This document shows, one piece after another, positions 35,308-52,755 of a stretch of DNA of 64,000 bases. The stretch's first letter is position 1. Every line of letters begins with the position of its first letter. The DNA lies in NCBI GenBank assembly GCA_021796335.1, contig JAJYHZ010000002.1, positions 192,998 to 256,997 on the forward strand. The letters are read 5' to 3'. Source of the stretch: a bacterium (lineage in GTDB: Bacteria > Patescibacteriota > Minisyncoccia > UBA6257 > UBA9933). Under the pieces are notes generated by a model. The model saw only the letters and a program-made list of their open reading frames with translations, made no database searches and was not told the origin of the DNA. The position numbers were made by a program, and so were the translations under genes.

Positions 35308-36147
35308 ATGACTAACAATGCCTACAAAATAGGGATTGTTGGCACGGGAATGGTGGGAGGAGCGTTGAAGCGATATTACGAATCGATAGGACAAAAGACT
35401 TTTATTTATGACAAATATAAAAACCTCGGATCGCCGAAAGAGCTTAATGAGGCTGATTTGATATTTATTTGCGTGCCGACTCCTTATAGTTTTGAATACG
35501 GGTGCGACCTCTCTTTTATTAAGGATGCGCTTAGTTTTATAAAAGGATCAAAAACGATCGTAATAAAATCGACCATTTTGCCGGGAACGACGGAAATTTT
35601 TCAAAAAAAATATTTGCAGCACAGGTTTTTATTCAATCCGGAATTTTTGTCGGAGGCTACGGCGGATGACGACATGAGTAATCCGGATATTCAGGTTGTG
35701 GGATTTACCATACAGAGCAGGTTTATTGCGGAAGATGTTTTGAAAACTTTGCCAAAAGCGCCGTTTGAAAAAATAATGCCGGCTACCGAGGCGGAAATGG
35801 TCAAATATTTCCATAACACGCACGGGACCGTCAAGGTAAGTTTTGCAAACCAGATGCATGATTTGTGCGAAGCGCTAAACGTTAATTACGAAAATGTAAT
35901 GCAGTGTGCGGTGAAAACAAAAAATATCCAAATAACGAATTATTTACATGTGTGGCATAAAGGGTTTCGCGGATATGGCGGAACGTGTTTTCCAAAAGAC
36001 ATTCGGGCGCTGATTTGGCTGGGCGATAATTTAGGAGTTGATTTAAAAATACATAAAGCGGCCGAGGAAGTGAATAATAAACTGATGGAAAAGCAAAATA
36101 TAAGCGATCCGGAATCTATGGGAAGAAGCTGGAGTATTTTGAACTAA
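35308..36147 (+). CDS. UDP-glucose/GDP-mannose dehydrogenase-family protein (short form lacking C-terminal UDP-binding domain)
   Basis: N-terminal Rossmann IGIVGTGMVGGAL and family signature FNPEFLSEATADDDMSNPDIQVVG; only 279 aa. Confidence 0.5.
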   Translation: MTNNAYKIGIVGTGMVGGALKRYYESIGQKTFIYDKYKNLGSPKELNEADLIFICVPTPYSFEYGCDLSFIKDALSFIKGSKTIVIKSTILPGTTEIFQKKYLQHRFLFNPEFLSEATADDDMSNPDIQVVGFTIQSRFIAEDVLKTLPKAPFEKIMPATEAEMVKYFHNTHGTVKVSFANQMHDLCEALNVNYENVMQCAVKTKNIQITNYLHVWHKGFRGYGGTCFPKDIRALIWLGDNLGVDLKIHKAAEEVNNKLMEKQNISDPESMGRSWSILN

Positions 36148-36152
36148 AACCT

Positions 36153-36180
36153 AAAAGCCGCTTTTAACAGCGGCTTTTAG
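36153..36180 (+). terminator. rho-independent terminator
   Basis: aaaagccgc-ttttaaca-gcggctttt. Confidence 0.6.
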
Positions 36181-36402
36181 GTTTGGAAAAGAAGCGGTAT
36201 TTATCCAAAATTGTTTTGGATTTTTGGGGCGATCTGACACTATATTAATATTGTCCGCAATATTGATTATAAAGTCTGGCTGTATTAGTATTAATAAATA
36301 ATAAAATCCCGTAATTTGGGATTTATATTTTATATAAAAACTTCATGCTCAAGGATTGCGTAGGCTCAAAGAAAGACTTAGCAATACTTTAACAGGGAAG
36401 TT

Positions 36403-38574
36403 ATGCGCAGAATGAAGCTTTTGATGAAAATATCCCTTTGGATATTGGCCTTTATTCCTCTTGTTATCGCCAATTCGGCATTTTTCCCTTACATTAGCGG
36501 AAAAAGTTTGATGATCAGAGCGGCCATTGCAGCAGTATCTTTGTTATTTATAATCCATCTAAACTTTTCCAAATATTTCAGAAAAGAAATTACCGGAAAA
36601 ATAAAAAAATACTGGAAGAATCCTCTTACTATAACGACTTTTTCATTTATTTTACTGACAACTATCAGCGCGATTTTCGCTTTTAACTCTTATAAAGCAT
36701 TTTTCGGCGACGTGGAGAGGGGAGAAGGGCTTTTGGGAATTCTTTCATTTTTTGCATTTTTCGTTTTTTCTCTTTTAATTTTTGAAAAGGAGGATTGGAA
36801 TTGGTTCTTCAGGTTCAATCTTTTTACGGGAATCATTTTGTTTGTAAACGAATTTTCGGCATTTCATTCCGGTACGGTGAGGCCGGGCGCAAATACGGGA
36901 AACCCGACTTTTTTGGCGGGATATTTTCTATTCGTGATTATGGCGGCTATAGCGAGTTATGCTATGGCGGAAAGAGATTCGGCCGCGGGATTGAGTTGGA
37001 AAATCCTATCGGCTATAACCGGAATTTTGGCAGTGGCCGGAATATTTATCACGGAAACCCGCGGAACCATTGTCGGATTGGCGATCGGGGTTTTGGCAAT
37101 AATTATTTATGCGGCTATAAAAGGAAAGGAAACCAAAATCTTCAACAAAATCAGTTTGCAAAAATTTTCTTTGGTTTTATTGGGAGTGTTGGTTGCATTG
37201 ATGCTGATTTTTGCCGCAACAAGGACAAATCCGGTTTGGGAAAAAGTTCCGGGATTAAACAGGTTGGCTCAAATCGGAACTGCGAGCGGAGACAGTTCGA
37301 TAAATACGCGTTTGATTTCCTTGGGAGTCAGCTTGAAAGCGATTAACCCGACCAATAATTCACTGAAGGAATTTTTAATCGGATGGGGGCAGGATAATTT
37401 CAGCATCGCTTATAACAGAAATTACAATCCGCAATATTATAAATACGAGCACTCTTGGTTTGACAGGGCGCACAACAAAATAATGGATGTTCTGGTGATG
37501 GACGGGGTTGCCGGTTTGGTTTCATACCTGGCATTGTGGGGAGCGTTTTTATGGCTGGTGTTCAGGAAAAAAGGATTTTCCGCCTTGGCGATGGCGACTT
37601 TGCTTTTCGGCGTAAGCTATTTTGCACATATTTTCGTGGTGTTCGATCAAATATCCACCTGGATTCCGTTTTTCGCGGCATTGGCGTTTTTGGTTTTCGT
37701 ATCGGAATTCAAGGATGAAGAAAAAAAGCCTGCCCATAAAACCGCAGAAGCAGGCGAGGCAAATAACTATACGCTGCCCTTAATTTTCGGGGCAATCGCA
37801 ATTTTCTTTTTATACAGTTTGATTTTTTGGACCGTAATCCCTTTTTCACAAATGAGCACGTATTTGGGCGCATATTCTTCAAGCAATCTGACGGATTTTA
37901 CAAATGCGGTAAAAAGCTCTTTAACTCCGTTTACTTACGCGCAGGAAGATATAAGAGGACATTTTTTGTCGATGGCGATGTCGTCTTATGCCAAAAACCC
38001 GAATTTCAAGGATTTGTTCAATTTGGCTTTGAACGAAATGGTTGATTTGGTGAACAGGGATCCGGCGAATCCGAGGTACGCTTTGCAAGCGGGTGAAGCG
38101 TATAATTTTCGAGGAAAGATGACAAATAACGCGGATGATTTAAAAACGGCGGAAAAATATTTCCGACAGGCTTTGGCTTGGGCGCCGCGAAGGCAGGATG
38201 TCATTTATGATCTATCCATGAGCGTATTGTCCCAAGGCAGAATCAATGAGGCCCTGGATCTTTTAAACGGATCAATGAAAGATGACAGTCAGGTTCCGGA
38301 GACTCATTATTATCTGGCTGTCGCTCAGACTTATTCGGGCGATTATAAGGATGCGTTGGCCAATGCCGAGTATGCCGCAAGCAGAATAAGCATGCCGCAA
38401 ATGAGCAATTTGTATCAGCAATTTTTGGCGTATTTCTACAAAGAAAAGGACAAGGCGGATTTTATGACAACGGCAAACAGGCTGGAAATTTTGGAGTCGG
38501 ACAAAAAATCCGAATTAGATCAGATTTTAAATTACGTAAACAAAGGCCAATGGCCGGTGATTAATTTTCAGTAA
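36403..38574 (+). CDS. O-antigen ligase/Wzy_C-like polytopic membrane protein with C-terminal TPR repeats (candidate O-oligosaccharyltransferase or polymerase)
   Basis: ~11 TM helices in first 450 aa, large loop, C-terminal ~250 aa TPR-like (YYLAVAQTYSGDYKDALANAEYA). Confidence 0.5.
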   Translation: MRRMKLLMKISLWILAFIPLVIANSAFFPYISGKSLMIRAAIAAVSLLFIIHLNFSKYFRKEITGKIKKYWKNPLTITTFSFILLTTISAIFAFNSYKAFFGDVERGEGLLGILSFFAFFVFSLLIFEKEDWNWFFRFNLFTGIILFVNEFSAFHSGTVRPGANTGNPTFLAGYFLFVIMAAIASYAMAERDSAAGLSWKILSAITGILAVAGIFITETRGTIVGLAIGVLAIIIYAAIKGKETKIFNKISLQKFSLVLLGVLVALMLIFAATRTNPVWEKVPGLNRLAQIGTASGDSSINTRLISLGVSLKAINPTNNSLKEFLIGWGQDNFSIAYNRNYNPQYYKYEHSWFDRAHNKIMDVLVMDGVAGLVSYLALWGAFLWLVFRKKGFSALAMATLLFGVSYFAHIFVVFDQISTWIPFFAALAFLVFVSEFKDEEKKPAHKTAEAGEANNYTLPLIFGAIAIFFLYSLIFWTVIPFSQMSTYLGAYSSSNLTDFTNAVKSSLTPFTYAQEDIRGHFLSMAMSSYAKNPNFKDLFNLALNEMVDLVNRDPANPRYALQAGEAYNFRGKMTNNADDLKTAEKYFRQALAWAPRRQDVIYDLSMSVLSQGRINEALDLLNGSMKDDSQVPETHYYLAVAQTYSGDYKDALANAEYAASRISMPQMSNLYQQFLAYFYKEKDKADFMTTANRLEILESDKKSELDQILNYVNKGQWPVINFQ

Positions 38575-38577
38575 AAT

Positions 38578-39627
38578 ATGAAAATTCTCGTTACAGGAGG
38601 CGCAGGATTTATTGGATCAAATTTTATTAGATACATCTTAAATAAATATAATGATGCACAAATTTTAAATTACGATGCGCTTACTTATTCTGGGAATTTA
38701 GAAAATTTAAAAGATATTAAAGAAAATGGAAGATATAAATTCGTTCAGGGAAATGTTGCAGATAAAAATTCCTTAGATGAAGTTTTTGCAGATTTTCAAC
38801 CAGATCTTGTTATTAATTTTGCAGCAGAAACCCATGTAGATAGAAGTATTCATGTTGGCGCAAAAGAATTTATTGATACAAATATTACAGGTGTTTTTAA
38901 TATTTTGGAAGCGGTCAAAAATGATTCGAATATTAAAAAATATGTTCAGGTTTCAACTGATGAAGTTTATGGGAGTTTGGATTTAGATTCAGAAAATGAG
39001 TTTTCAGAAGAAACTTCTTTTGCGCCAAACGTTCCTTATGCCGCAACTAAAGCAGGGGGAGATCTTTTGTGTAGGGCCTATAACCACACATTTGGAGTTC
39101 CTGTTGTTGTAACTCATTGCTCGAATAATTACGGGCCTTATCAATATCCAGAAAAACTAATTCCGTTTTTAATTTTGAGAATGTTAGAGGATAAAAAAAT
39201 TCCATTGTATGGAGATGGGGAAAATGTTAGGGATTGGATATATGTTTTAGATCATTGCAGTGCATTAGAATCTTGTTTATTTAATGGAAAATCTGGAGAA
39301 GTTTATAACATTGGAGGTGATAATGAATTGGCAAATGTTGAAATTGCAAAAAGAATTTTAAGATATTTTAACAGAGATGAATCATGGATTGAATATGTAA
39401 AAGACAGACCAGGACATGATCGAAGATATGCGATCGATTCTTCTAAAATACAGCAAGAATTGGGTTGGAAACCAAAATATAATTTTGAACAGGCTTTTGA
39501 TGAAACGGTCAAATGGTATTTGAATAATCCCGAATGGATCGATGGTGTTAGAAAAAAAACAGGCGTTTTTAATCCTCATATAGATTTATGGAAAGAACAT
39601 AAAAGTTTAGACGATAATAAAGTATGA
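38578..39627 (+). CDS. rfbB: dTDP-glucose 4,6-dehydratase
   Basis: MKILVTGGAGFIGSNF, catalytic YxxxK (YAATKAG), RmlB-specific DALTYSGNLENL. Confidence 0.9.
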   Translation: MKILVTGGAGFIGSNFIRYILNKYNDAQILNYDALTYSGNLENLKDIKENGRYKFVQGNVADKNSLDEVFADFQPDLVINFAAETHVDRSIHVGAKEFIDTNITGVFNILEAVKNDSNIKKYVQVSTDEVYGSLDLDSENEFSEETSFAPNVPYAATKAGGDLLCRAYNHTFGVPVVVTHCSNNYGPYQYPEKLIPFLILRMLEDKKIPLYGDGENVRDWIYVLDHCSALESCLFNGKSGEVYNIGGDNELANVEIAKRILRYFNRDESWIEYVKDRPGHDRRYAIDSSKIQQELGWKPKYNFEQAFDETVKWYLNNPEWIDGVRKKTGVFNPHIDLWKEHKSLDDNKV

Positions 39628-40334
39628 AGGGTATTATTTTGGCGGGAGGAAATGGAACACGTTTAAGGCCATTGACTCTTATAACAAATAAGCATCTTTT
39701 GCCGGTTTATAATAAGCCGATGATTTTATATCCCTTAGAAACTTTAAGAAAATCGGGCATTGATGAAATTATGATAGTTTGCGGGAAAGAACATGCCGGA
39801 CATTTTATGAATTTTCTGAGTTCTGGGGAAAATTATGGAGTAAAATTATCTTATGCACTTCAGCATGATGCTGGGGGAATAGCTGAGGCATTGGGATTAG
39901 CAGAGGATTTTGCTGATAATGGTAAAATTGCAGTTATACTGGGGGACAATATTTTTGAAGATGATTTTTCGAATAATATTAAATCTTTTAGGAAACAAAA
40001 TGGAGCAAAGGTTTTTATAAAAAAAGTTACTGATCCGACTAGGTTTGGTATTGCAGTAATAAAAGAAGGGAAAATAATCAGTATTGAAGAGAAGCCTAAA
40101 AATCCTAAATCGAATTTTGCAACAGTCGGGTTTTATCTTTACGATTCCGATGTTTTTAAAAAAATTAAAAATCTAAAACCATCCAAAAGAGGGGAATTGG
40201 AAATAACGGATGTCCATAATATGTACATAAAAGAAAATAATTTATCCTATGGTGTTGTTAAGGGATTTTGGTCAGATGCCGGCACATTTGAATCTTTATT
40301 TAAGACCTCTAAGTGGGCACTATCTAGAAAATAA
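39624..40334 (+). CDS. rfbA: glucose-1-phosphate thymidylyltransferase (short form)
   Basis: MKGIILAGGNGTRLRPLT nucleotidyltransferase motif; position within rml operon; 236 aa lacks sedimentation/allosteric C-terminus. Confidence 0.75.
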   Translation: MKGIILAGGNGTRLRPLTLITNKHLLPVYNKPMILYPLETLRKSGIDEIMIVCGKEHAGHFMNFLSSGENYGVKLSYALQHDAGGIAEALGLAEDFADNGKIAVILGDNIFEDDFSNNIKSFRKQNGAKVFIKKVTDPTRFGIAVIKEGKIISIEEKPKNPKSNFATVGFYLYDSDVFKKIKNLKPSKRGELEITDVHNMYIKENNLSYGVVKGFWSDAGTFESLFKTSKWALSRK

Positions 40335-40886
40335 ATGGCAGCTAATTTTATACAAACAAATTTTAGAGAATCTTTTATTATTGAACCCAAAGCTTTTGAA
40401 GACCATAGGGGTTATTTTATGGAGTCTTATAATATTAAAGATTTTCAAAACAAAGGGATTACTGATAAATTTATTCAGGAGAATTTTTCTTTTTCCCAGA
40501 AAAACGTTTTGAGGGGAATGCACTTCCAAAAATCACCTCATGAAACAAGCAAATTTATTCGTTGTGTGGAAGGGGAAATTTACAATGTTATGATAGATAT
40601 TCGCAAAAACTCGTCGACTTTTGGTAACTGGCAAGGGTTTTTCTTATCCAAAGAAAACAGAAAGATGCTTTACGTGCCTAAAGGATTTGCCAATGGATTT
40701 TGTGCCATAAGCAATGGAGCGGGAGTTGCTTATATGGTGGATGAGTTATATTATCCTGATTTTGCTGGAATTATTAGATGGGATGATCCTGATATTGGTA
40801 TTTCTTGGCCAGTCAAAAATCCAGTTCTTTCTGAACAAGACAAAAACGCTCCATTTTTAAAGGAAATTATTGATTTTCTAGGGTAA
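40335..40886 (+). CDS. rfbC: dTDP-4-dehydrorhamnose 3,5-epimerase
   Basis: FIIEPKAFEDHRGYFMESYN ... LRGMHFQ ... cupin fold motifs of RmlC. Confidence 0.85.
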   Translation: MAANFIQTNFRESFIIEPKAFEDHRGYFMESYNIKDFQNKGITDKFIQENFSFSQKNVLRGMHFQKSPHETSKFIRCVEGEIYNVMIDIRKNSSTFGNWQGFFLSKENRKMLYVPKGFANGFCAISNGAGVAYMVDELYYPDFAGIIRWDDPDIGISWPVKNPVLSEQDKNAPFLKEIIDFLG

Positions 40887-40903
40887 GTTGCTTATTCTAA
40901 AAT

Positions 40904-41731
40904 ATGGATTTTTCAAAAACCTTAATTACTGGTGGCGATGGGATGGTCGGCAGCTATGTCGATTTTGGTGTTAAAACAAATAAAAGATCTCTAGATATAA
41001 CAGATTTAAAAGAAGTCTTACTTGTGGTAAATAAATATAAACCTAAAGCCATATTACATTTAGCGGCAGAGACCGATGTTGATCGCTGTGAGCGTGATCC
41101 ACAATTTGCTTATTTTATAAATTCAATCGGAACTTATAATATTGCTTTAGCTGCCAAGCAGATTGGGGCAAAACTGGTTTATGTATCTACAAATGCTATC
41201 TTTGATGGAAAGAAAAAAACTCCTTACCAAGAAAATGATGCACCCAATCCGCAAAATTATTATGGTCATTCTAAATTTTTGGGAGAAGCAGCAATAAAAG
41301 AATTATTAGAGGACTACCTCATTGTTAGAGCTTCTTGGATGTTTGGTGGAGGGCCAGCAAAAGATCAAAAGTTTGTTGCAAAAATTATCAATCAAATAAA
41401 AAATCCAGAAATTAAAGAAATTAAAGCAGTCACAGATCAAATAGGTGCCCCTACTTCTGGGAAAGATTTGGTAAAAGGAATAAAATTTCTTTTAGAAAAA
41501 GATGAGAAAGGAATTTTTAATTTGCCAAATTCTGGAATAGCTTCAAGGTATGATGTCGCTAAATTTATAATAAATACATTAAGACCAGAAGTTAATGTGA
41601 TTCCCGTGGATTCTTCTTATTTTAATTTAGATGCTAAGAGAATTGGGAATGACGGTTTAATATCAAAAATTAATATAATGCGTTCATGGCAGGATGCTAT
41701 GGCAGAATATTTAAAAGAAGAATGGATTTAA
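40904..41731 (+). CDS. rfbD: dTDP-4-dehydrorhamnose reductase
   Basis: short-chain reductase GGDGMVGS, ILHLAAETDVDRCERDP, STNAIFDG RmlD motifs. Confidence 0.8.
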   Translation: MDFSKTLITGGDGMVGSYVDFGVKTNKRSLDITDLKEVLLVVNKYKPKAILHLAAETDVDRCERDPQFAYFINSIGTYNIALAAKQIGAKLVYVSTNAIFDGKKKTPYQENDAPNPQNYYGHSKFLGEAAIKELLEDYLIVRASWMFGGGPAKDQKFVAKIINQIKNPEIKEIKAVTDQIGAPTSGKDLVKGIKFLLEKDEKGIFNLPNSGIASRYDVAKFIINTLRPEVNVIPVDSSYFNLDAKRIGNDGLISKINIMRSWQDAMAEYLKEEWI

Positions 41732-41748
41732 AATAATTAATCAAAGCT

Positions 41749-42981
41749 ATGAAAGAAGAATTTGTTCATAATAATAAATGTAAAAGTTGCGATGGTGTTA
41801 ATTTAGTGAAGTTTTTGGATTTGGGATCTATGCCTCCAGCCAATGCTTTTTTACCTAAAGATGAACTGAATAATGCCGAAGATAAATTTCCTTTGGCTGT
41901 TTATTTTTGTCAGGATTGTGCCATGGTCCAACTTTTGGATGTTGTTGACCAAGATATTCTTTTTGGCCGCTATAACTATTTAACATCAGCTAGTAAACCA
42001 TTGGTGGATCATTTTATCCAAATGGGGAATGAATTAGTAAATAAATTCATTAAATCCAGAGATGATTTAGTGGTTGAGATTGGAGGAAATGATGGGGTAT
42101 TAGTTGGTGCTATTAAAGATAAATGCAGAGTTTTAAATGTGGAACCTGCAAGCAATATTGCGGAAATTTCTAGAGAAAAGGGGATAGAGACCATTAATAA
42201 ATTTTTCAATAAAGATTTAGTGGAGGAAATTTTGAAGAAATATGGCAATGCTAAAGTTATTGTCGCCAATAATGTTATGGCTCATATAGATGATTTAAAG
42301 AGCGTATTTGAAGGCATAAAAATTTTAATTGGAGGGGATGGGGTTTTTGTGTTTGAAGTTCACTGGGTTGGTAATTTGTTGGGCGAAGGCGGATTTGATC
42401 AAATTTATCATGAGCATCTTTATTACCACTCTTTAATTTCTTTGAGGAATTTTGTAAAGCAATTTGGTTTGAATATTTTTGATATTGAAACGGTCCCTAT
42501 ACATGGCGAATCAATGCGAGTTTATGTAAGTAAAAATATGCCAATAAGTGAAAATGTTGAAAAATTTTTAACAAAGGAAAAACAACTCGGACTTGATAGA
42601 GCGGAAACATTTTTAAATTTTTCAAAAAAAGTTGAAGATAATAAAATAAGATTAAAATCGATTCTTAACGAATTAAAAAAAGAAAATAAAAAAATAATTG
42701 GCTATGGTGCGCCCGCAAAAGGCAATACATTACTTAATTATTTTGAAATAGACAGCACTATTTTAGGTTACATAATTGATACAACGCCTCTAAAACAAGG
42801 AATGTACACGCCTGGAACACATATTATCGTGAGTTCGCCAGATAGAATAAAAGAAGAATTACCGGATTACATTTTGCTTTTAGCTTGGAATTATGCAGAT
42901 GCTATTTTAAATAAAGAAAAAGAATTGCGAGAAAGAGGCGTGAAATTTATTATCCCCGTGCCTGAAGCAAAAATTGTGTAA
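41749..42981 (+). CDS. NDP-hexose C-methyltransferase-like (TylC3/Methyltransf_13+14 architecture) with N-terminal zinc ribbon
   Basis: CKSCDG...CQDCAM zinc-ribbon, class I MTase motif VVEIGGNDG, C-terminal domain typical of sugar C-methyltransferases; 410 aa. Confidence 0.55.
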   Translation: MKEEFVHNNKCKSCDGVNLVKFLDLGSMPPANAFLPKDELNNAEDKFPLAVYFCQDCAMVQLLDVVDQDILFGRYNYLTSASKPLVDHFIQMGNELVNKFIKSRDDLVVEIGGNDGVLVGAIKDKCRVLNVEPASNIAEISREKGIETINKFFNKDLVEEILKKYGNAKVIVANNVMAHIDDLKSVFEGIKILIGGDGVFVFEVHWVGNLLGEGGFDQIYHEHLYYHSLISLRNFVKQFGLNIFDIETVPIHGESMRVYVSKNMPISENVEKFLTKEKQLGLDRAETFLNFSKKVEDNKIRLKSILNELKKENKKIIGYGAPAKGNTLLNYFEIDSTILGYIIDTTPLKQGMYTPGTHIIVSSPDRIKEELPDYILLLAWNYADAILNKEKELRERGVKFIIPVPEAKIV

Positions 42982-43026
42982 TTTTTATCTATTGCTTCAA
43001 GCAAGATTTCTTTAACTATCATAATT

Positions 43027-43977: not shown

Positions 43978-43979
43978 TT

Positions 43980-44915
43980 ATGCCTAAAGTTTTTATTCTG
44001 ATTTTACATTGGCAAAAATATGATATTACGAGGGAATGTCTAGAATCATTTAAAAAATTAGATTATCCAAATTATAAGATTGTGGTTTTAGACAATGCAT
44101 CATCTAATGATTCGGCGCGCAGATTAGAACAAGAATTTCCACAGAACTTATTTATTTTCAATAAAGAAAACAAAGGCTATGGGGCGGGTATGAATCCAGG
44201 AATAAAATATGCTTTGGATAACGGTGCAGATTATATTTTTCTTTTAAATAACGATGTCATTGTTAGCAAAAATGATTTTTTAGTTAGACTGATTAACTTG
44301 ATGGAAAGTAATAAAAAGGTCGGTATTGCTGGCCCTAAATTATTATTTAGAGATATGACATATCAAAGATCTTATAGAAATTATTTCTTTTCCATAGCTC
44401 TTGGATTCTGGGCACCTGAAAAAGTGTTTATTTTTTTTAGAAAGATATTTGGCATACTTCCAAAAGACAATATTACTCACAAAGTTGATTGGCTAAATGC
44501 TGTTGCTTTGTTATTTAAAAGAGAAGTGTTTGAAAAAATTGGTTTGATGGATGAAAGATTTTTTTTGGGCGCTGAAGATGTCGATTTATCATTAAGCGCT
44601 AAAAATAAAGGATGGGAGACTTGGTATTGTGCTGAGTCAGAGTTAGTGCACTTAAGTTTTGTCAGTCACGACAATGAAGGCGGTGCCGGATATGATAAAT
44701 ATTGGATAGAGAGTACAATATTATTTTTAGAAAAACATTACTCTAAGATTACAGTTTTCGTAATAAGATTTTTAATTGTTTTAGGTTTATTTTTGAGAGG
44801 GCTGCAGTGGTCAATTCTTGGATTATTTAATCAATCTTATTTTTTAAGAGCAAAAAATTTTTTTAGAATAAGCTACTTTTCATTGATTATTAGACCTAGA
44901 TTTGCCAATAAATGA
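43980..44915 (+). CDS. family 2 glycosyltransferase
   Basis: VVLDNASSNDS, DYIFLLNNDV (DxD) GT-A motifs. Confidence 0.7.
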   Translation: MPKVFILILHWQKYDITRECLESFKKLDYPNYKIVVLDNASSNDSARRLEQEFPQNLFIFNKENKGYGAGMNPGIKYALDNGADYIFLLNNDVIVSKNDFLVRLINLMESNKKVGIAGPKLLFRDMTYQRSYRNYFFSIALGFWAPEKVFIFFRKIFGILPKDNITHKVDWLNAVALLFKREVFEKIGLMDERFFLGAEDVDLSLSAKNKGWETWYCAESELVHLSFVSHDNEGGAGYDKYWIESTILFLEKHYSKITVFVIRFLIVLGLFLRGLQWSILGLFNQSYFLRAKNFFRISYFSLIIRPRFANK

Positions 44916-45814
44916 TTATGAATCCTTTAGTATCTATATTGGTTTTAAATTGGAATAATTTTGATGACACTAATAATTGTGTGACTTCATTATTATCACT
45001 AAATTATAACAATTTTAATATTTTAATTATTGATAATGGTTCTACCGACAATTCTTTTATAAGACTAAAAAATAAATTCCGCGATGAGAGAATCATTTTT
45101 TTAAAAAATAAAGAAAATTTTGGTTATGCTGGAGGTATAAATATAGGCATAAAGTATGTTTTTGAAAAATTATCTTCCGATTTCATTTGGATTCTAAATA
45201 ACGATATTATGGTTGATAAAGATTCTTTAAAATTTTTAATCGATGCTGTAAATAAAAATAAGAAAATTGGTATTGCTGGTCCAACGATTTATTTGGCTGG
45301 AACTAAAAAAATAATGGAACAATATTATCGTTTAAATTTACTTTTTGGACGTTTTTTGGTTAAAACCAATCTTAATGAGAATGAAGTAGTTAAAATAGAA
45401 AATAAAAAAAATAATTACATAGGAGGAGCCGCTGTTTTTTTACGAAAGGAAATTCTAAATAAAATTGGCTATATTCCCGAAGAATATTTTATGTATAATG
45501 AGGATATAGCATGGCATCAAAAAATAAAAAATACTCAATTAGAATATTTATATGTTGGTCCAGCAAAGGTATGGCATAAAAAAGGCGCTTCTAGCGGTGG
45601 GAAAAAAACTATAATGCCTGATTATTATGACTCCAGAAATTTTCTTTATTTTATAAAAAAATTTTATCCGCTTTGGTTGCCTTATGAATTTTTTATGTCA
45701 ATTATTAATAAGGTCTTTCCCAAAGTGTTAAGAGGAGAATGGGAAAGACTCAGATATGTTTTTATGGGATTTAGAGACTTTGCAAAAGGTAAAATGGGAA
45801 AATTCGAAAATTAA
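44912..45814 (+). CDS. family 2 glycosyltransferase
   Basis: ILIIDNGSTDNS, FIWILNNDIMVD GT-A motifs. Confidence 0.7.
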   Translation: MIMNPLVSILVLNWNNFDDTNNCVTSLLSLNYNNFNILIIDNGSTDNSFIRLKNKFRDERIIFLKNKENFGYAGGINIGIKYVFEKLSSDFIWILNNDIMVDKDSLKFLIDAVNKNKKIGIAGPTIYLAGTKKIMEQYYRLNLLFGRFLVKTNLNENEVVKIENKKNNYIGGAAVFLRKEILNKIGYIPEEYFMYNEDIAWHQKIKNTQLEYLYVGPAKVWHKKGASSGGKKTIMPDYYDSRNFLYFIKKFYPLWLPYEFFMSIINKVFPKVLRGEWERLRYVFMGFRDFAKGKMGKFEN

Positions 45815-45816
45815 CT

Positions 45817-46614
45817 ATGCCAAAGGTTTCGATAATAACCCCCTTTTATAAAGGAGAAAAATATATTGGTAGGGCTATTGAAAGTATTTTAAATCAAAAT
45901 TATAAAGATTTTGAATATCTTATCGTTGATGATGGGTCAAAAACTAATTTTAATAATTATCTAACTAATAAATATGGAGGCAAAATTATTTATATAGAAA
46001 AAAGCAATGGTGGTCAGGCTTCGGCAGTAAATGTTGGGATAAAAAAAGCAAGGGGGGAATTTATTGCTTTCTGTGATCAAGATGATTGGTATTTGGATGA
46101 TAAATTATTAAAACAAGTCAATTTTTTAAAAAGCCATCCCGAAATTGCTATGGTTTATTCTGATGTCTTAATGGGAGATGAGAATGGTAAAATACTTGAT
46201 AAAACATGGATGCAATCTAGAAAAGTACGATTTTGCAGTGGAGGTTATGCCGATTGTGCGGCCAAATTATTTAAAAGGAATTTTATTCCCGCACCTTTGG
46301 CAGTTATGATTAGGAAATCTATTTTTGATCAAATAGGTTTATTTAATGAAAAATTTTCTAGCGCTTATGATTATGATTTTTGGTTTAGAATTCTAGAAGC
46401 CGGAATGCGTATTGGGAATATGGAAAATAAGTCAGCTGTTTGGAGAACTCATAGCGGCCAAGAAAGCAGGAATATAAAAAAGGCTAAAATAATGCAAATT
46501 GGAATTTTAAGAAGTTTTTTAAAGAGAAATCCAAAATTTGTATTAAACCACCCATTTTTAACTGCCTATAAAATCGTAAAATCATATATCGCTTTAATAT
46601 TCAGTTTGATATGA
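45817..46614 (+). CDS. family 2 glycosyltransferase
   Basis: VSIITPFYKGEKYIGRAIESILNQ, LIVDDGS, FCDQDD. Confidence 0.7.
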   Translation: MPKVSIITPFYKGEKYIGRAIESILNQNYKDFEYLIVDDGSKTNFNNYLTNKYGGKIIYIEKSNGGQASAVNVGIKKARGEFIAFCDQDDWYLDDKLLKQVNFLKSHPEIAMVYSDVLMGDENGKILDKTWMQSRKVRFCSGGYADCAAKLFKRNFIPAPLAVMIRKSIFDQIGLFNEKFSSAYDYDFWFRILEAGMRIGNMENKSAVWRTHSGQESRNIKKAKIMQIGILRSFLKRNPKFVLNHPFLTAYKIVKSYIALIFSLI

Positions 46615-46686
46615 ATCTATGTTTAAAAAAAAGTATATAAATTTAATAAGGAAATTTGTTGGCAATATAGAAAGAGAAAGAGTGGG

Positions 46687-47832
46687 GTGGCAGAAAAATT
46701 TATTTTAATAAATATGAGGATAGGAATTAATTTAATTCAATATAGGGGATTACATGGTATTGAGGCTTTTGCTCGAGAAATTATCGAAAAATTGATTTTA
46801 TTGGATAAAGATGATGAATTCATCCTTTTTACGAATCAAAATTCTTCAGTTATTTTTAAATTTAGTGGTTCAAATGTAAAAATAATTGAAGAAAAATTTA
46901 AAAATTTTTCTAGATTTAATTTAATTTTATATCAACAAATCTTGTTGCCTCGGATACTAAAAAGAGAAAAAATTGATTTGCTTTATTGCCCATCTGTAGC
47001 TATGCCAATTTTTTATAAAAATAAAATTGTTACTATCCATGATTGTGCAGCTTTTAAATTCAAGAACGAGGTGGGGTTCTCATCAAGAATTTATCTTAAA
47101 ATGGCATTTTGGTCCGCTAAAAATTTTAGTAAAAAAATTGTAACAATTTCCGAATTTTCAAAAAATGAGTTGATAAATGATTATAAAGTTAATCCAGATT
47201 TAATTAGTGTTATCTCTGAAGGAGTTGCGCGAATTCCAGACGTTTCTCTGGATTTTATTGAAAAAACAAAAGAAAAATTTAAAATAGAAAATCCATATTT
47301 TTTTTATTTAGGAAACATTCATTATCGAAAAAATTTAATTGGTTTGTTGGAATCTTTTAAAAAATTTAAAGAAAATCATAACGAATTTTATTTGGTTTTT
47401 GGAGGAAGGATAAATAGTTGTTTTATTAATATTCGGGAAGAAGCGAAGAGATTAAATATTAGTAATAGTTTAATTCAGACGGGGTTTATTTCAGATGAAG
47501 AAAAAGTGGCATTATATAAAGGTGCAATCGCCCATGTCTTTCCTTCTTTTTATGAGGGATTTGGACTTTCTATTTTGGAGGCACAGTCTTTGGGTGTCCC
47601 GGTTTTGACTTCAAACATAACTTCAATGCCGGAAGTGGCTGGGAAAGGGGCCTTATTTGTTAACCCTTATAGTATAGAGGAAATTGCAAGTGGTTTGGAA
47701 GAAATCGTTTTTAATAAAGAATTGAGAAAAAAAATAATAAATAGAGGATTTGAAAATGTAAAAAGATTTTCTTGGGAATTTACTGCAAGGAAAATGATTA
47801 ACATTTTTGAAATTTTTAATAATTACGAATGA
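46687..47832 (+). CDS. family 4 (GT-B) glycosyltransferase
   Basis: C-terminal EGFGLSILEAQSLGVPVLTSN motif. Confidence 0.75.
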   Translation: MAEKFILINMRIGINLIQYRGLHGIEAFAREIIEKLILLDKDDEFILFTNQNSSVIFKFSGSNVKIIEEKFKNFSRFNLILYQQILLPRILKREKIDLLYCPSVAMPIFYKNKIVTIHDCAAFKFKNEVGFSSRIYLKMAFWSAKNFSKKIVTISEFSKNELINDYKVNPDLISVISEGVARIPDVSLDFIEKTKEKFKIENPYFFYLGNIHYRKNLIGLLESFKKFKENHNEFYLVFGGRINSCFINIREEAKRLNISNSLIQTGFISDEEKVALYKGAIAHVFPSFYEGFGLSILEAQSLGVPVLTSNITSMPEVAGKGALFVNPYSIEEIASGLEEIVFNKELRKKIINRGFENVKRFSWEFTARKMINIFEIFNNYE

Positions 47833-47867
47833 ATTCGATAGTTTAATTTCGTTTCAAATAAAAATAA

Positions 47868-49088
47868 ATGTCAATGCTTAAAAAATATAAAAAATTATTT
47901 CAAAAGTTTTTGGGGAATATTTATAGAAAAAGTTTGGAATGGCAACGTAATCTAATTAAGGCATTGAAGTTTTTTTATTTATTGGCAATGTTTCCGATTG
48001 AAATAGTCGGGGATATTTTATTTTTAGGGAAAAGGTTTAAAAAAGGGAAGATACATAATCCTAAGAGAATTTTAATCGTAAAAATCGACCAGTTTGGGGA
48101 TGTTCTTTTTTCGACCTTTATGTTGCCCTTGATTAAAGAAAAATATCCGGAGGCGCAAATAGATTACCTTATAAATCCGAAAACGGAATTTGTCATTAAA
48201 AATAATCCCCATATTTCCAATATTTATTATTGGGAAGATCCATTTTTGCATTTTCTTTTGGGCAGAGAAAAAAGCAATAAGCCGCCGATTTGGAAAATTT
48301 TAAAAAGGGATTTTGATTTGGTTAAAACAATAAGAAAAGAAAATTACGATGCGGTTATAAATACACGCGCTTATTCCCCCAGCACGAATATTTTTTGGAA
48401 ATTATTAAGGCCGAAAAATTTAATCGCTTTTGACATTGCGGAACAAAGCTTTTTGGCGGATTTTTGGGTTGATTACGATTTATATGACGAAGAATGGAGG
48501 AATTATTTAAATCTGTTGTTGCCTTTGGGAATAAATAAAAGTAAGGCAGAATTTAAACCGGGATTCTTTAATTTTAATGAAAAAGAATTTATGGAAAAAC
48601 TTCCCGGGTTAAATAAAAAATTTATTGTGATTTCGCCAGTTTCTTTTGACAAAGAAAGGAATTGGCCAGTGGAAAGATGGAAAGAGGTTATTGATTTTTT
48701 AACAGAAAGAAATTATCAAGTGGTTTTAACGGGGCTTAAATCGCAGGAAAATTATCTTTTAAGTATTTCTGCGGCAGTTGCTTCGCCAAATCTATTTATC
48801 ATTTCAGATATTTCAATTCCGGGATTGGGCAGTGTTTTTAACAATGCCGAATTTTTTATTGGAATTGATTCTTTTCCAGCTCATTTAGCCTTGGCTCTAA
48901 ATAAACCAATAATTTGTTTTGTTAACGAGCAAATTTATTTTCTAAAGAACTTTTCTCAAAAGAAATTTTATATGGACGCGAGGTGTATGATCCCTTTAGT
49001 TGATAAGGTAAAAATTGTTCCAACAACAAATAGCACAAGCGAATATGTTATTTCGTTGGCAGAGGAGTTGATTGGCGGGGAGATGTAA
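47868..49088 (+). CDS. family 9 glycosyltransferase (heptosyltransferase-like)
   Basis: ILIVKIDQFGDVLFSTFMLPLIKEKYPEAQIDYL N-terminus and C-terminal GIDSFPAHLA motif typical of GT9. Confidence 0.6.
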   Translation: MSMLKKYKKLFQKFLGNIYRKSLEWQRNLIKALKFFYLLAMFPIEIVGDILFLGKRFKKGKIHNPKRILIVKIDQFGDVLFSTFMLPLIKEKYPEAQIDYLINPKTEFVIKNNPHISNIYYWEDPFLHFLLGREKSNKPPIWKILKRDFDLVKTIRKENYDAVINTRAYSPSTNIFWKLLRPKNLIAFDIAEQSFLADFWVDYDLYDEEWRNYLNLLLPLGINKSKAEFKPGFFNFNEKEFMEKLPGLNKKFIVISPVSFDKERNWPVERWKEVIDFLTERNYQVVLTGLKSQENYLLSISAAVASPNLFIISDISIPGLGSVFNNAEFFIGIDSFPAHLALALNKPIICFVNEQIYFLKNFSQKKFYMDARCMIPLVDKVKIVPTTNSTSEYVISLAEELIGGEM

Positions 49089-49095
49089 AGGAAAC

Positions 49096-49158
49096 AGATT
49101 CTTCGTCCGCCGGCTGGGCGGATTCAGGATGACAAGGAGGCGGATCAGGATAACAGAA
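49096..49158. repeat. MITE-like repeat fragments copy 3 (tandem ggcggattcaggatgac / ggcggatcaggataac)
   Basis: shares ggcgga(t)caggatgac core with copies 1, 2, 4. Confidence 0.55.
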
Positions 49159-49175
49159 ACTAATAGCGAATGGCG

Positions 49176-50627
49176 TTATTGTCTTTGCAGGATGATGTTT
49201 TTAATATCAATCGCGGTTTCTTCTTTTAAAATAATCAGAGAGACAATATAAGCCAGAGCGGAGGAGATTATTATCAGGAGGACATTGATGTTGAGGTTTA
49301 ATAGCCCTTCGATAAAGCCGACCATAACAGCCGAGGCGATAATTGTTTTTGTAAAACTGCTAATAACTCTAAACTGAAGGTGTTTTTTAAGACTGAAGTA
49401 TAGATACAGGGTTATTATGATTGTGTTTATAAGCGAAGCCAAAGCAGATCCGGCAATGCCAAATGGAGGTATGAGCAAAATATCAAAAAACAGATTTCCG
49501 AAAATTCCAAGAGCCGCATAAATAAGCAATTGACGCTCTTTTCTAAGGGCAAATAATTGATTGCCAAGCGCATTGGACATAAAGGTGGGAATAAACATCA
49601 GGCTCATTATCATAAAAGTGATTGTGGCCGGAATATACCGGTATCCGAATAATAAAACGATAATTTTTTGCGATAATAAAATTCCGCCAATTGTTAAGGG
49701 GAGGGCTAAAATTATCATCAGTGCCAAACTTTTTTCAACTATTTTTACCAGCCTTTCTTTTTGGTCGGCTAATTTCGCGGTTTGGGGGAAAAGGGCAACG
49801 GTTATCATGGCAGGCACAATAAAAATAATTTGGGTTATTCTTAATGGCGCGGAGTAGTAGCCTACCTCGGTGATGCTTTTTAACCAAGCAATCATAAGGT
49901 TGTCCGTGTTGAGCATTACTGTTCCCATAACAGCCAGAATTCCCATGGGCCAGCTGGAATAAAGAAGGGTTTTTATTATGCTTTTCGAAAAAGTTTTTTT
50001 GACGTTTTTGAGATAACGGCGGAACGGATAGAATGCGCTTATCATGCCCAGTCCTGTTCCAAGCACATATCCAAGAGAAAGAGCTTTCGGGGTTTTGGAA
50101 TAATAAAGGGCGAGAAAACCGCCGGCGACAATAAAGACATTGGTGATAATTTGAACAACAGCTTCGATCTCCATTTTTTCCCAGGCGCGGGCAAGAGAGG
50201 CGCCAAAATCCCTCAAGCTGTCAAAGGCGACAATTAGAATAACTATCGGCATCAAGTCGGCGACGGCTTTATCTTTAAAGAGAAGAGGAGACAAAACAAT
50301 TACTGAGATGGAGATGAGGGCGAGCATTATCAGTTTTATAACTAAGGCGGTGGAAAAATATTTTTCCTGGATAGAAAGATCCTTGCTGGATTCGCGGACA
50401 ATGGTCGCGTTTAATCCGAAATCGGCGAAGGTTGTGAAAAATCCGGCTAAACTTAAGGCATAAGAAAAAGCGCCGTATCCGTTAACGCTGAGGACGCGAG
50501 CGGCATAAACGATGATGGCCAGCTTGATAAGCTTTGAAAAAATCTGGCCGAAAAACAGCCAAAAGGTATTTTTGGCGACAGTCTGGCGGGCGGTTTTATT
50601 TTTGAATAAGAATTCACGAATATTCAC
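49176..50627 (-). CDS. wzx: Wzx-type polysaccharide flippase (MOP superfamily)
   Basis: 12-14 TM helices, polysacc_synt-like N-terminus; GTG start inferred. Confidence 0.7.
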   Translation of the reverse strand: MNIREFLFKNKTARQTVAKNTFWLFFGQIFSKLIKLAIIVYAARVLSVNGYGAFSYALSLAGFFTTFADFGLNATIVRESSKDLSIQEKYFSTALVIKLIMLALISISVIVLSPLLFKDKAVADLMPIVILIVAFDSLRDFGASLARAWEKMEIEAVVQIITNVFIVAGGFLALYYSKTPKALSLGYVLGTGLGMISAFYPFRRYLKNVKKTFSKSIIKTLLYSSWPMGILAVMGTVMLNTDNLMIAWLKSITEVGYYSAPLRITQIIFIVPAMITVALFPQTAKLADQKERLVKIVEKSLALMIILALPLTIGGILLSQKIIVLLFGYRYIPATITFMIMSLMFIPTFMSNALGNQLFALRKERQLLIYAALGIFGNLFFDILLIPPFGIAGSALASLINTIIITLYLYFSLKKHLQFRVISSFTKTIIASAVMVGFIEGLLNLNINVLLIIISSALAYIVSLIILKEETAIDIKNIILQRQ

Positions 50628-50652
50628 AAATTAAACACAAATTTCACAAATG
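50609..50652. promoter_or_regulatory. heptamer array (cacgaat, cacaaat x3) overlapping wzx start and GxxExxY stop
   Basis: gaattcacgaatattcacaaattaaacacaaatttcacaaatg; ~85% identical to reverse complement of nusA-upstream array. Confidence 0.5.
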
Positions 50653-51045
50653 CTAATTAAGCACTCTTCGAAATTCAAGCTTGTTATGTTTGAAATTAGC
50701 AATAATTCCCAATTTTAATCCTGTAGCTTCTAAATATCGTAGAACTTGCTTTATGTCATTTTGACTTATTTTCCAAATAACTTTTGTTTCCAATAAGATT
50801 TGATTATTTATTATAAAATCAGCAAAAAATTCACCCAACTCTTCATCTTCAAATTTTGTTTTTATCTGAACTTCTTTTTTATCGAGAAGACTATATTTCC
50901 CCAGTTTTATAGCAATGGCTTTTTGATAATGTTTTTCTTGGTATTTATTTCCCAGCTTATTATGCACTTCAAATAGAATTCCCATTAGTTTATAACTTAA
51001 TTCTGGATAAATAAGTTTTTCTTTATTCGTGATATTCGTGATCAT
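50653..51045 (-). CDS. GxxExxY-family protein (predicted PD-(D/E)xK nuclease fold)
   Basis: YPELSYKLMGILFEVHNKLGNKYQEKHYQKAIAIKL carries the GxxExxY signature (GILFEVHNKLGNKY). Confidence 0.7.
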   Translation of the reverse strand: MITNITNKEKLIYPELSYKLMGILFEVHNKLGNKYQEKHYQKAIAIKLGKYSLLDKKEVQIKTKFEDEELGEFFADFIINNQILLETKVIWKISQNDIKQVLRYLEATGLKLGIIANFKHNKLEFRRVLN

Positions 51046-51070
51046 TTGTGTAAATTTGTGCGTAAATTAT
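51024..51070. promoter_or_regulatory. heptamer array (attcgtg x2, atttgtg x2, cgtaaat) overlapping GxxExxY start
   Basis: ttattcgtgatattcgtgatcatttgtgtaaatttgtgcgtaaatt. Confidence 0.5.
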
Positions 51071-52404
51071 TTCTGGTTCACAAAAAATAACTTAAGCGTT
51101 TTTAAAACAATAAGCAAATCCAAAAAAATCGAGCGGTTTTCAATGTAAAATATGTCATATTGGAGTTTTTCGACTGCGTCTTGAACGGAGGCGCCGTAGC
51201 GGTAATTGATTTGCGCCCAGCCGGTGATACCGGGTTTGGTCAAATGGCGGATTTCGTAATAAGGGATTTGATCCTTCAATTCTTTGACGAATTCGGGGCG
51301 TTCGGGACGGGGGCCGACAAAAGAAATATTTCCTTTAAAGACGTTGACTAGTTGCGGCAATTCGTCTAAGTGTGTGTATCTTAGAAATTTTCCGAATTTA
51401 GTTACGCGGTTGTCGCCGGGCTGGGACCATTGAGCGCCGTTTTTCTCGGCATCAAGGCGCATCGTTCTGAATTTATAAAGAGTAAATTCTTTTTCATTTT
51501 TTCCGATGCGGATTTGCTTATAAATCACAGGACCGAGAGAAGTCAGTTTGCCGATTAAAAATATAATAAGAAAAAACGGAGAAAAAATAATCAAGGCAAT
51601 TAAGGCGAAAATTTCATCAAGAATGTTTTTCCCCATGTCATATAGGCCGGTTTTATAAATGAAGTTTTCCAAAAACCAAGCTTCTTCCAACTCGGTTAGC
51701 GGGACCTTTTGGAAAATATTTTCATAGAATTCGGAAAGGTTGAGAACTCGGATTCCCAAGGGGAGATTTTTATAAATTAATTTCGCCAAGCGGATTTTTT
51801 CGGTTAAGTGGGCGGGAATGACAATTAATTTTATATTGTTTTTTAAAATGATTTGAGAAAGATTTTCGGCATTGGTCAGCTCATTTTCATGGATTTTCAA
51901 TTTAATTTGAAAACCGAATTGAGCGTGGATTTTTAAAAATTCGTCGAGTTTTTCCGGCAGATCATTTTTTTGATCAGAGGTGATAATTAAAACATTTTCG
52001 GGCGATTTTGATCTGATATTGAAAAAGTTAAAAAAGTATCGCCAGGCGAATTCCAAAATTCCAAAAACAATTATAAAGATAAGCAAGTTTGTTTTAGGAG
52101 CAATGCCAAAGAAGGGAATCAAATAAAAGAAGGCGATGGCTATAAAGATATTAATCAAAAGAGAAATGGCGAATTTTTTGAAAAAATTAAGATTATTGCG
52201 CAGAGTTTTGCTTTCGTAAAGGTCGTTGATATAAAAGACAATCAGCCAGATGATGAAAATAAGAGAAAAAGGCAGGATGTGAAGAGAAATCTTGCTCGCG
52301 AATTGTTGCGGACCATAACGCAAATCAAGGGTCAGAAGCAGAGATCCGTATAAAATAATAATATCGCTTATTAAAAGAAGAAATTGTTTAAATTTGGAAA
52401 GCAT
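51067..52404 (-). CDS. undecaprenyl-phosphate sugar phosphotransferase (WbaP/WcaJ-like bacterial sugar transferase)
   Basis: N-terminal TM bundle, C-terminal IRIGKNEKEFTLYKFRTM...GPRPERPEF catalytic domain. Confidence 0.8.
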   Translation of the reverse strand: MLSKFKQFLLLISDIIILYGSLLLTLDLRYGPQQFASKISLHILPFSLIFIIWLIVFYINDLYESKTLRNNLNFFKKFAISLLINIFIAIAFFYLIPFFGIAPKTNLLIFIIVFGILEFAWRYFFNFFNIRSKSPENVLIITSDQKNDLPEKLDEFLKIHAQFGFQIKLKIHENELTNAENLSQIILKNNIKLIVIPAHLTEKIRLAKLIYKNLPLGIRVLNLSEFYENIFQKVPLTELEEAWFLENFIYKTGLYDMGKNILDEIFALIALIIFSPFFLIIFLIGKLTSLGPVIYKQIRIGKNEKEFTLYKFRTMRLDAEKNGAQWSQPGDNRVTKFGKFLRYTHLDELPQLVNVFKGNISFVGPRPERPEFVKELKDQIPYYEIRHLTKPGITGWAQINYRYGASVQDAVEKLQYDIFYIENRSIFLDLLIVLKTLKLFFVNQK

Positions 52405-52454
52405 TAATTCTTAAATCGTTCTAATTAGTTTAATTTTGATTATGAGCTTTTTCC

Positions 52455-52545
52455 CCGTCGATTGGCGGATCAGGATGACGCAGAGGGGACTCAGGATAGC
52501 ACCCTTTTCGCTTTATTCAGGACGATATGGCAGACGATAGACGGT
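52455..52545. repeat. MITE-like repeat fragments copy 4 (ggcggatcaggatgacg, actcaggatagc, attcaggacgat)
   Basis: same core as copies 1-3; with copy 3 brackets the minus-strand wzx-GxxExxY-wbaP block. Confidence 0.55.
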
Positions 52546-52755
52546 TTTTGAAATTGCTTTTGTTGACTATAGTTTCGGGGTGAATTATTATTTTAAAAAG
52601 CCGAAAATATATTTAAATTCTAATCTTTTTTTAACAAATTATGAAGGTTTCTCCCGGGCAAGATTCAGGGATAGACCTTTGTTGCGGTATTGCTCGTCCA
52701 AAATGAAAAAATCTTATTTTTTCATTTTGTTCCCTGCTTGTCCGCATTAAACAAA

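Follow-up and report, generated by a model that had tools for sequence, protein, structure and literature searches.

What does a Wzy_C-type membrane protein do in a glycan locus of a bacterium that presumably lacks lipopolysaccharide (LPS)? The question is raised by a predicted rhamnose-based surface-glycan locus at positions 35308-52404 of a 64,000-nt stretch of DNA (the window; positions 192,998 to 256,997 of contig JAJYHZ010000002.1, assembly GCA_021796335.1) from a member of the Patescibacteriota, or Candidate Phyla Radiation (CPR). Near the left end of the locus lies a gene for a 723-aa protein that joins a Wzy_C domain to a C-terminal TPR region. The original prediction, made from the sequence of the window, was that of an S-layer O-glycosylation system in which this protein serves as O-oligosaccharyltransferase (O-OTase) in the manner of WsaB or PglL, and a Thr/Ser-rich, 1091-aa protein encoded at 23804 is the acceptor. 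Our analysis retains the O-OTase as the best supported function and adds evidence for the pairing with the acceptor; the S-layer label is unproven, and the PglL-specific motif was not detected. We propose a modular cell-surface glycosylation island whose principal acceptor would be the family of the 1091-aa protein, a model that, taken whole, we regard as slightly better than an even bet.

In Pfam, the Wzy_C domain (PF04932) matches residues 207-376 of the 723-aa protein with 46.6 bits, against a cutoff of 31.7. An AlphaFold model built from a 49-sequence alignment (pLDDT 92.6, pTM 0.91) matched WaaL better than SEDS proteins or other membrane folds in structural comparison, the WaaL ligase being the nearest solved structure at 13% sequence identity. 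WaaL was also reached through the PDB sequences (7tpg, E 5.9e-4) by a family profile trimmed to the membrane part; with the full-length profile, TPR proteins crowded out other matches, and the membrane part as a single sequence gave no matches. In the membrane-part profile, R220, R303 and H357 align with R191, R265 and H313 of the Cupriavidus metallidurans enzyme. In alignments of 46 and 49 sequences, R303 and H357 never vary, and at least 90% of the sequences keep R220; in the former, restricted to the membrane part, R303, D354, R355, H357 and N358 are all invariant, and the ligase-type His motif reads DRAHN...G. The equivalent triad of Escherichia coli WaaL (R215, R288, H338) is essential and is conserved in PglL as R224, R298 and H349 (Schulz et al., PMC3643930). 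Hydropathy, the positive-inside rule and the helices of the model agree on 13 transmembrane (TM) helices with the N-terminus inside. In this predicted topology, R303, D354, R355 and H357 sit in an outside loop (residues 274-359), and the TPR domain (about residues 480-723), which follows the 13th helix, is extracytoplasmic. A topology of 13 TM helices with the C-terminal domain in the periplasm is also described for PglS (PMC12800693).

The Wzy_C/TPR gene opens a packed run of co-directional genes on the + strand (36403-49088) that continues with RmlB, a short RmlA, RmlC, RmlD, two methyltransferases and five glycosyltransferases (GTs). It is met by a convergent run on the - strand, from 52404 to 49176, comprising a WbaP/WcaJ-like phosphoglycosyltransferase (PGT), a GxxExxY/PDDEXK_3 gene and the flippase Wzx. 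To compare this arrangement with that in relatives, genes were called in the window and in 87 fetched loci (designated by L numbers) and labelled by phmmer against the proteins of the window and of the first fetched loci, with their recorded Pfam families. From locus to locus, the Wzy_C/TPR gene is kept, at 27-50% identity, beside unrelated glycan genes. The Wzx–WbaP frame is also kept beside unrelated glycan genes in three relatives. A common frame, consisting of Wzy_C on one side and leftward Wzx and WbaP followed by rightward DsbA on the other, is found in the window, L005 and L062, with different genes inside; the divergent WbaP-DsbA junction is the same in both relatives. Identities between the window and L005 are 48% for Wzy_C, 50% for Wzx, 62% for WbaP and 51% for DsbA. 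The PGT is 51% identical to its L062 copy, and Wzx is 50% identical to the Wzx proteins of both L005 and L010 despite the different glycan genes of these loci.

Base composition draws the same line. GC content at third codon positions (GC3) is 0.47 for Wzy_C/TPR, 0.455 for Wzx, 0.42 for WbaP and 0.46 for DsbA. In the 10.5-kb cassette running from rmlB to the GT9 gene it falls to 0.18-0.31 (0.18-0.28 in the rml genes, 0.19-0.31 in the GT genes), with a sharp boundary between the segment 38578-49088 and the flanking segments 36403-38574 and 49176-53577. These data suggest that the low-GC3 set of rml, methyltransferase and GT genes is a horizontally exchanged sugar cassette lodged in a conserved frame. 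The export mode of the relatives varies as well. Among close relatives with at least 6 kb of downstream sequence, 17 have only Wzx, 6 have only an ATP-binding cassette (ABC) exporter, and in 21 neither was detected within the flank. Pfam matches identify ABC-export components in three loci that retain the Wzy_C/TPR gene: L003 (Wzt_C), L007 (ABC2_membrane and ABC_tran/Wzt_C) and L006 (ABC2_membrane), the last of which holds the closest Wzy_C/TPR homolog. Export by Wzm/Wzt-type ABC transporters needs no Wzy polymerase. True wzy genes show the greatest variability and are specific to their cassette. A repeat-unit polymerase is therefore disfavored, since the frame gene has the GC content of the backbone and persists across unrelated cassettes and ABC loci. 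Relaxed donor specificity, as expected of a ligase or an oligosaccharyltransferase, would account for a conserved enzyme that is indifferent to both cassette and export route. We conclude that the Wzy_C/TPR enzyme is very probably a ligase rather than a polymerase; its WaaL fold, catalytic triad and conservation beside unrelated cassettes, ABC-type ones included, all argue for a ligase or oligosaccharyltransferase.

Scanning the window genes revealed no Wzz or LCP gene, nor any lpx or waa core gene within the 64 kb. With neither a separate polymerase nor a chain-length regulator present, the glycan probably consists of one oligosaccharide unit; either this is so, or the enzyme also polymerizes. 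Single-unit glycans are usual for native O-OTases, as a passage of PMC9829042 has it.

Evidence bearing on the acceptor came from the surroundings of the Wzy_C gene in relatives. In 80 non-redundant loci, 41 of 1169 genes encode homologs of the 1091-aa protein (PGB), and 38 of these 41 are found no farther than three genes upstream of Wzy_C, with alignments that extend over the PG_binding_1 region itself in 37 of the 38. PGB is immediately upstream of Wzy_C, on the same strand, in 31 of the 80 loci, and is a far more frequent neighbor than any other gene. In the close subfamily, 36 of the 50 loci with enough upstream sequence have a PGB homolog no more than three genes upstream. Reciprocal look-ups, starting from four PGB homologs on long contigs, found Wzy_C directly downstream in three. 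Among these reciprocal loci, L091 has Wzy_C fused to TPR, L089 has a separate 200-aa TPR gene adjoining Wzy_C, and in L092 a separate 202-aa TPR gene comes after a pair of Wzy_C genes. What had been a guess at the acceptor thus gains strong, independent support from conserved adjacency in both search directions. In PglL-type systems, the acceptor gene is adjacent to and co-oriented with the O-OTase gene in 21 of 31 cases (PMC3643930).

The 1091-aa protein itself contains 28% Thr plus Ser and has the features of a secreted, wall-bound protein (Table 1). Its AlphaFold2 model has a pLDDT of 85.7. Foldseek matched the beta-sandwich region to generic Ig-like arrays only (PrgB, alpha-2-macroglobulin, integrin legs) and the protein to no known S-layer protein; Pfam detected no SLH or other recognized S-layer anchor domain. 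The protein is anchored through PG_binding_1 and is modeled as an Ig-like string resembling adhesin stalks. The family counts 560 homologs and is conserved over the full length, the full-length ones listed being 32-57% identical; full-length homologs annotated as peptidoglycan-binding protein come from Paceibacterota. The homologs fall in two size classes, of about 610-675 aa and about 1100-1220 aa, and share the signal peptide, the PG_binding_1 domain, the beta-sandwich domains and, often, a Thr-rich linker. In approximately half of them, a Thr-rich low-complexity stretch just past the PG-binding domain takes the form of polyT, (TTP)n, (TG)n or (GTTT)n. Composition is thus conserved where sequence is not, which is typical of O-glycosylated linkers. 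PglL substrates are glycosylated in low-complexity Ser/Thr regions (PMC3643930).

Three other explanations need to be weighed against transfer of the glycan to the wall protein. The enzyme could serve as Wzy polymerase for a wall or capsular polysaccharide made by the Wzx/Wzy route, joining flipped repeat units, with another enzyme encoded elsewhere, such as one of the LCP type, attaching the polymer to peptidoglycan. Pfam Wzy_C takes in some polymerases; true Wzy proteins are also multi-pass membrane proteins of the same broad superfamily, and the locus has both Wzx and a WbaP-like PGT. Moreover, no other Wzy candidate was found in the window locus or, within 10 kb, in 14 of the 17 Wzx-only relatives, for which reason the protein may yet act as a polymerase or in a dual role. 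However, a gene whose catalytic residues are invariant is retained in ABC loci that need no polymerase, and it keeps 40-50% identity and backbone GC beside unrelated glycan genes, whereas true wzy genes vary. Wzy polymerases are specific for a repeat unit, are confined to Wzx/Wzy systems and covary with the cassette; this gene is present in ABC-type loci too and does not covary with the cassette. The nearest structure is that of a ligase, the His/Arg triad and the DRAHN...G motif are of the ligase type, and no Wzz or LCP gene was seen among the window genes scanned. We consider polymerase activity quite improbable as the main function.

The remaining two explanations accept a ligase and differ as to its target. 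A WaaL-like ligase could act on a non-protein acceptor (a glycolipid anchor, a lipoteichoic-acid-like polymer or peptidoglycan), the PG-binding neighbor being a structural partner. The closest solved structure is indeed WaaL, the triad is common to all ligases of the family, the conserved neighbor does bind peptidoglycan according to its PG_binding_1 domain, and the PglL-specific motif PglL_A (PF15864) is absent among Pfam matches at E <= 0.001, so that by this domain test the protein is not a member of the PglL family. CPR bacteria, on the other hand, are described as monoderm and without LPS. An extracytoplasmic TPR is a protein-binding module, reported for WsfB and PglL (PMC2943079), and the co-oriented, conserved upstream gene has the composition typical of an O-glycosylation substrate. 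We hold a non-protein acceptor to be unlikely. A general O-OTase working mainly on other surface proteins, as do TfpO/PilO or general PglL enzymes, is less probable still. The candidates would be type IV pilin-like proteins and the 1399-aa LTD/PKD protein of the window. The LTD protein belongs to the conserved neighborhood, and L001, a locus syntenic with the window, has two 380-aa prepilin-like genes flanking SpoU upstream of Wzy_C; yet no prepilin-type N-terminus occurs anywhere in the window, and the pairing with PGB is far commoner than that with any other neighbor. Pilin glycosylation of the TfpO kind, which the L001 neighbors brought to mind, was for these reasons kept as a minor rival. 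Several further points tell against transfer to the wall protein. In the window, the acceptor gene is not adjacent to Wzy_C/TPR, being 9.3 kb and seven genes upstream; the pilin-like neighbors in L001 imply that acceptors may differ or be multiple; adjacency could reflect a shared envelope function instead of an enzyme-substrate relation, and the Thr-rich linkers may be mere spacers. Sequence and fold do not separate protein-directed from lipid- or glycan-directed ligases of the superfamily. What the data show is the gene content, the fold, the conserved catalytic residues, the frame with its cassette and the conserved gene pairing; from these we infer the sugars, the transfer to protein, the acceptor and the lack of polymerization. 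Weighing all this, and counting the wall protein together with other surface proteins, we find it fairly likely that the acceptor is a protein.

In the pathway that we favor, transfer to the wall protein, the WbaP/WcaJ-like PGT would start the glycan on polyprenyl phosphate, on the inner side of the membrane. The five GTs would then extend the glycan with dTDP-L-rhamnose and a C-/O-methylated 6-deoxyhexose supplied by RmlBACD and the two methyltransferases, the sugars being assigned from family membership and both methyltransferases presumably tailoring the 6-deoxyhexose. Wzx would flip the lipid-linked oligosaccharide outward, and the 13-TM, WaaL-fold enzyme, with H357, R303, R220 and its outside TPR domain, would transfer it en bloc to Ser/Thr residues of a secreted protein. 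Of the candidates, the Thr-rich 1091-aa protein anchored to peptidoglycan is the likeliest to receive it, above all on the disordered Thr/Gly linker.

In architecture, the closest described analogues would be WsfB of Paenibacillus alvei and WsaB plus WsaA of Geobacillus stearothermophilus, which are predicted S-layer O-OTases of slg loci (PMC2943079); the match is to their published description, not to their sequences. A C-terminal TPR is reported for WsfB as well as for PglL, while WsaB is paired with a separate TPR protein, WsaA, encoded beside it, a split form that also occurs in CPR relatives. The slg loci have rmlACBD, methyltransferase, GT and WbaP-like initiating enzyme genes; the envelope is monoderm and the acceptor a surface protein (PMC2943079). 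The candidate acceptor differs here in being a PG_binding_1-anchored string of beta-sandwiches with a Thr linker and not a demonstrated lattice-forming S-layer protein. Export in the window is by Wzx, in contrast to Wzm/Wzt in G. stearothermophilus; CPR relatives use either. The likeness to WsaB and PglL drawn in the original prediction gains support from the TPR reported for WsfB and PglL. With PglL, PglS and TfpO (PilO), the CPR enzyme has in common the WaaL-like fold, the Arg/Arg/His triad, an extra C-terminal extracytoplasmic domain and relaxed donor specificity, here implied by coexistence with many glycan cassettes; in those systems, too, the acceptor gene is often adjacent and co-oriented, and the sites are in low-complexity Ser/Thr regions (PMC3643930, PMC12800693). 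It differs in that PF15864 was not found, the C-terminal domain is a TPR array of about 240 aa, and the neighbor is a wall-binding protein in a monoderm CPR host instead of a pilin in a Gram-negative one. Compared with WaaL (7TPG/7TPJ), the CPR enzyme has an additional TM helix and the outside TPR domain, and no lipid A-core acceptor is expected in CPR.

En bloc O-OTase systems are of a known kind; the phylum, the acceptor class and the frame-plus-cassette organization would be new. Full-text literature searches returned no paper tying CPR/Patescibacteria to O-antigen-ligase-like enzymes, S-layer glycosylation or this module. Tentatively, and with somewhat more doubt than belief, we suggest that Paceibacteria, or the wider CPR, hold a phylum-scale, hitherto undescribed module for the O-glycosylation of protein, made up of a peptidoglycan-anchored multi-Ig protein with a Thr linker, its cognate WaaL-fold/TPR enzyme and a Wzx/PGT (or ABC) frame with horizontally swapped low-GC cassettes. 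The surfaces of CPR/Patescibacteria, which live attached to host cells, have hardly been characterized. If the model is true, these episymbionts would wear a hypervariable glycoprotein coat, much as O-antigen serotypes are switched, though here a wall protein would carry the glycan. The pairing of enzyme and surface protein with swappable cassettes would define the major glycoconjugate of these cells and mark a likely determinant of host or phage recognition. It would also provide a concrete, testable enzyme-substrate pair in unculturable organisms, and a new source of O-OTases with relaxed donor specificity, the kind used for bioconjugate vaccines.

The Wzy_C/TPR family is large: it comprises 903 representatives (clusters at 50% identity) at E <= 1e-30, and relatives occur in 479 GTDB species. 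Relatives were found by an alignment-based scan of genome contigs; a scan with the single Wzy_C/TPR protein yielded none. Every named homolog of the Wzy_C/TPR protein, and likewise of the 1091-aa protein, comes from Paceibacterota, Wolfebacteria or other Patescibacteria, the best homologs of the key proteins being 44-50% identical. This supports a CPR origin, to which the DNA had been assigned at the outset. An identical gene fragment is present in ERZ27233560, a CPR-rich groundwater sample. Family members vary in arrangement. A long, TPR-bearing Wzy_C (760-850 aa) is followed by a short, TPR-less paralog (approximately 444-488 aa) in L025, L031, L035, L038, L041, L047, L050, L053, L066, L070 and L092; a separate 202-aa TPR protein of its own comes after the short paralog of L092. 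In L052, L054, L055, L059, L060, L063 and L089, Wzy_C and TPR are two open reading frames (ORFs).

All genes named in the prediction are present in the ORF list, with Pfam or NCBIfam matches at their positions (Table 1); it had omitted two, the 279-aa gene at 35308-36147 and the small gene at 50653-51045. Three of the four RmlABCD enzymes pass their equivalog models, rmlA being the best match only for the fourth. The protein initially called WbaP passes the generic exopolysaccharide (EPS) polyprenyl glycosylphosphotransferase model TIGR03025 (337.7 against 295.55) but fails the WbaP model (165 against 403).

Table 1. Features of the glycosylation island, the candidate acceptor and the block between them (nucleotide positions are those of the window; residues are numbered within the protein).
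Feature	Position	Strand	Basis
Candidate acceptor, secreted wall-bound protein, 1091 aa	23804-27079	+	Pfam, sequence, AlphaFold2 model
1091-aa protein: signal peptide	residues 1-33		
1091-aa protein: helix	residues 33-55		
1091-aa protein: PG_binding_1 domain	residues ~70-138 (model)		Model; Pfam match 76-130
1091-aa protein: disordered (TG)n/Thr linker	residues 139-165		Model
1091-aa protein: tandem beta-sandwich domains	remainder, ~900 aa		
PaaX_M/Cas2-like gene, intervening block	27301-27852		Pfam
179-aa membrane protein, intervening block	28319-28858		Pfam scan
1399-aa surface protein, LTD x3 + PKD	28837-33036		Pfam
NYN gene	33104-33661	-	Pfam
SpoU gene	33974-34462		Pfam
Second PaaX_M-like gene	34536-35093		Pfam
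Nucleotide-sugar-dehydrogenase-like short protein, 279 aa	35308-36147	+	Pfam, NCBIfam, sequence
Wzy_C/TPR ligase-type enzyme, 723 aa, proposed O-OTase	36403-38574	+	Wzy_C residues 207-376 (E 3.9e-12), TPR 578-658
rmlB, rmlA (short), rmlC, rmlD: dTDP-L-rhamnose pathway	38578-41731	+	Pfam, NCBIfam
RmlB	38578-39627	+	NCBIfam, 468 bits against cutoff 365
RmlA, short form, 236 aa	39624-40334	+	Best match rmlA; 244.5, below equivalog cutoff 360.65
RmlC	40335-40886	+	215 against cutoff 156
RmlD	40904-41731	+	224.5, barely above cutoff 224.05
Sugar C-methyltransferase, TylC3-type architecture	41749-42981	+	Pfam Methyltransf_13 + Methyltransf_14
Class I S-adenosylmethionine (SAM) methyltransferase	43027-43977	+	Pfam Methyltransf_23/11/12
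GT2 x3	43980-44915, 44912-45814, 45817-46614	+	Pfam, NCBIfam; first two weakly rhamnosyltransferase-like
GT4	46687-47832	+	Pfam
GT9	47868-49088	+	Pfam
Wzx-type flippase, frame gene	49176-50627	-	Pfam Polysacc_synt
GxxExxY/PDDEXK_3 small gene between wzx and PGT gene, GC 0.27	50653-51045	-	Pfam, NCBIfam
Initiating polyprenyl-phosphate glycosylphosphotransferase, WbaP/WcaJ-like, 445 aa, frame gene	51067-52404	-	Pfam Bac_transf
DsbA-like thioredoxin-fold protein, conserved right border of island	52690-53577	+	Pfam

The two omitted genes are of different kinds. The 279-aa protein has an N-terminal GxGxxG motif and a central domain, without the C-terminal domain, and a terminator-like hairpin lies 3' of its gene. 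Homologs of 266-291 aa occur in the CPR glycan loci L066, L041 and L075 (E 1e-65 to 1e-70). A truncated ugd pseudogene was considered and ruled out: since intact homologs of this size recur in CPR loci, and the GxGxxG motif and the terminator are kept, this is a real and, it appears, distinct short family. The GxxExxY/PDDEXK_3 gene is probably a passenger. In L044 and L052, homologs have been inserted next to Wzy_C genes, and this nuclease-like gene may be a small mobile passenger that targets such loci.

The block separating the acceptor gene from Wzy_C/TPR recurs elsewhere. L001 has nearly the same order (PaaX_M, small membrane protein, LTD protein, SpoU, Wzy_C), and L084 is partly similar. 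The LTD/PKD block is bracketed by the two PaaX_M/Cas2-like proteins, which are paralogous, one having Mrr_N/winged-helix matches; the gene for the second has a GC content of 0.28 and a homolog in the same place in L001. The 179-aa membrane protein gene overlaps the start of the 1399-aa LTD/PKD gene, and the pair, which is conserved in L001, L023, L062 and L084, may form another surface structure or be an additional target of glycosylation. In L001, from a groundwater CPR bacterium, the two 380-aa proteins (6943-9918) are Thr-rich, have type IV prepilin N-termini (RRGFTLLELL) and flank SpoU immediately upstream of Wzy_C/TPR; glycosylation might use them as alternative substrates.

Some features of the window lie outside the island and its neighborhood. 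A MacB-type ABC pump (MacB_PCD/FtsX permease and ATPase) with an HlyD-family membrane-fusion protein is encoded on the - strand at 2654-6281, a set that one would not expect if, as presumed, the organism has no outer membrane. The 149-aa protein encoded at 11719-12168 is Cys-rich, with many CxxC-like spacings, and has no Pfam match; neither does the 202-aa protein that follows it. Finally, in the ORF for ribosomal protein S2 (55176-56570), 68 residues precede the Pfam match as an N-terminal extension, so that the TTG start may be miscalled, and EF-Ts is only 157 aa long.

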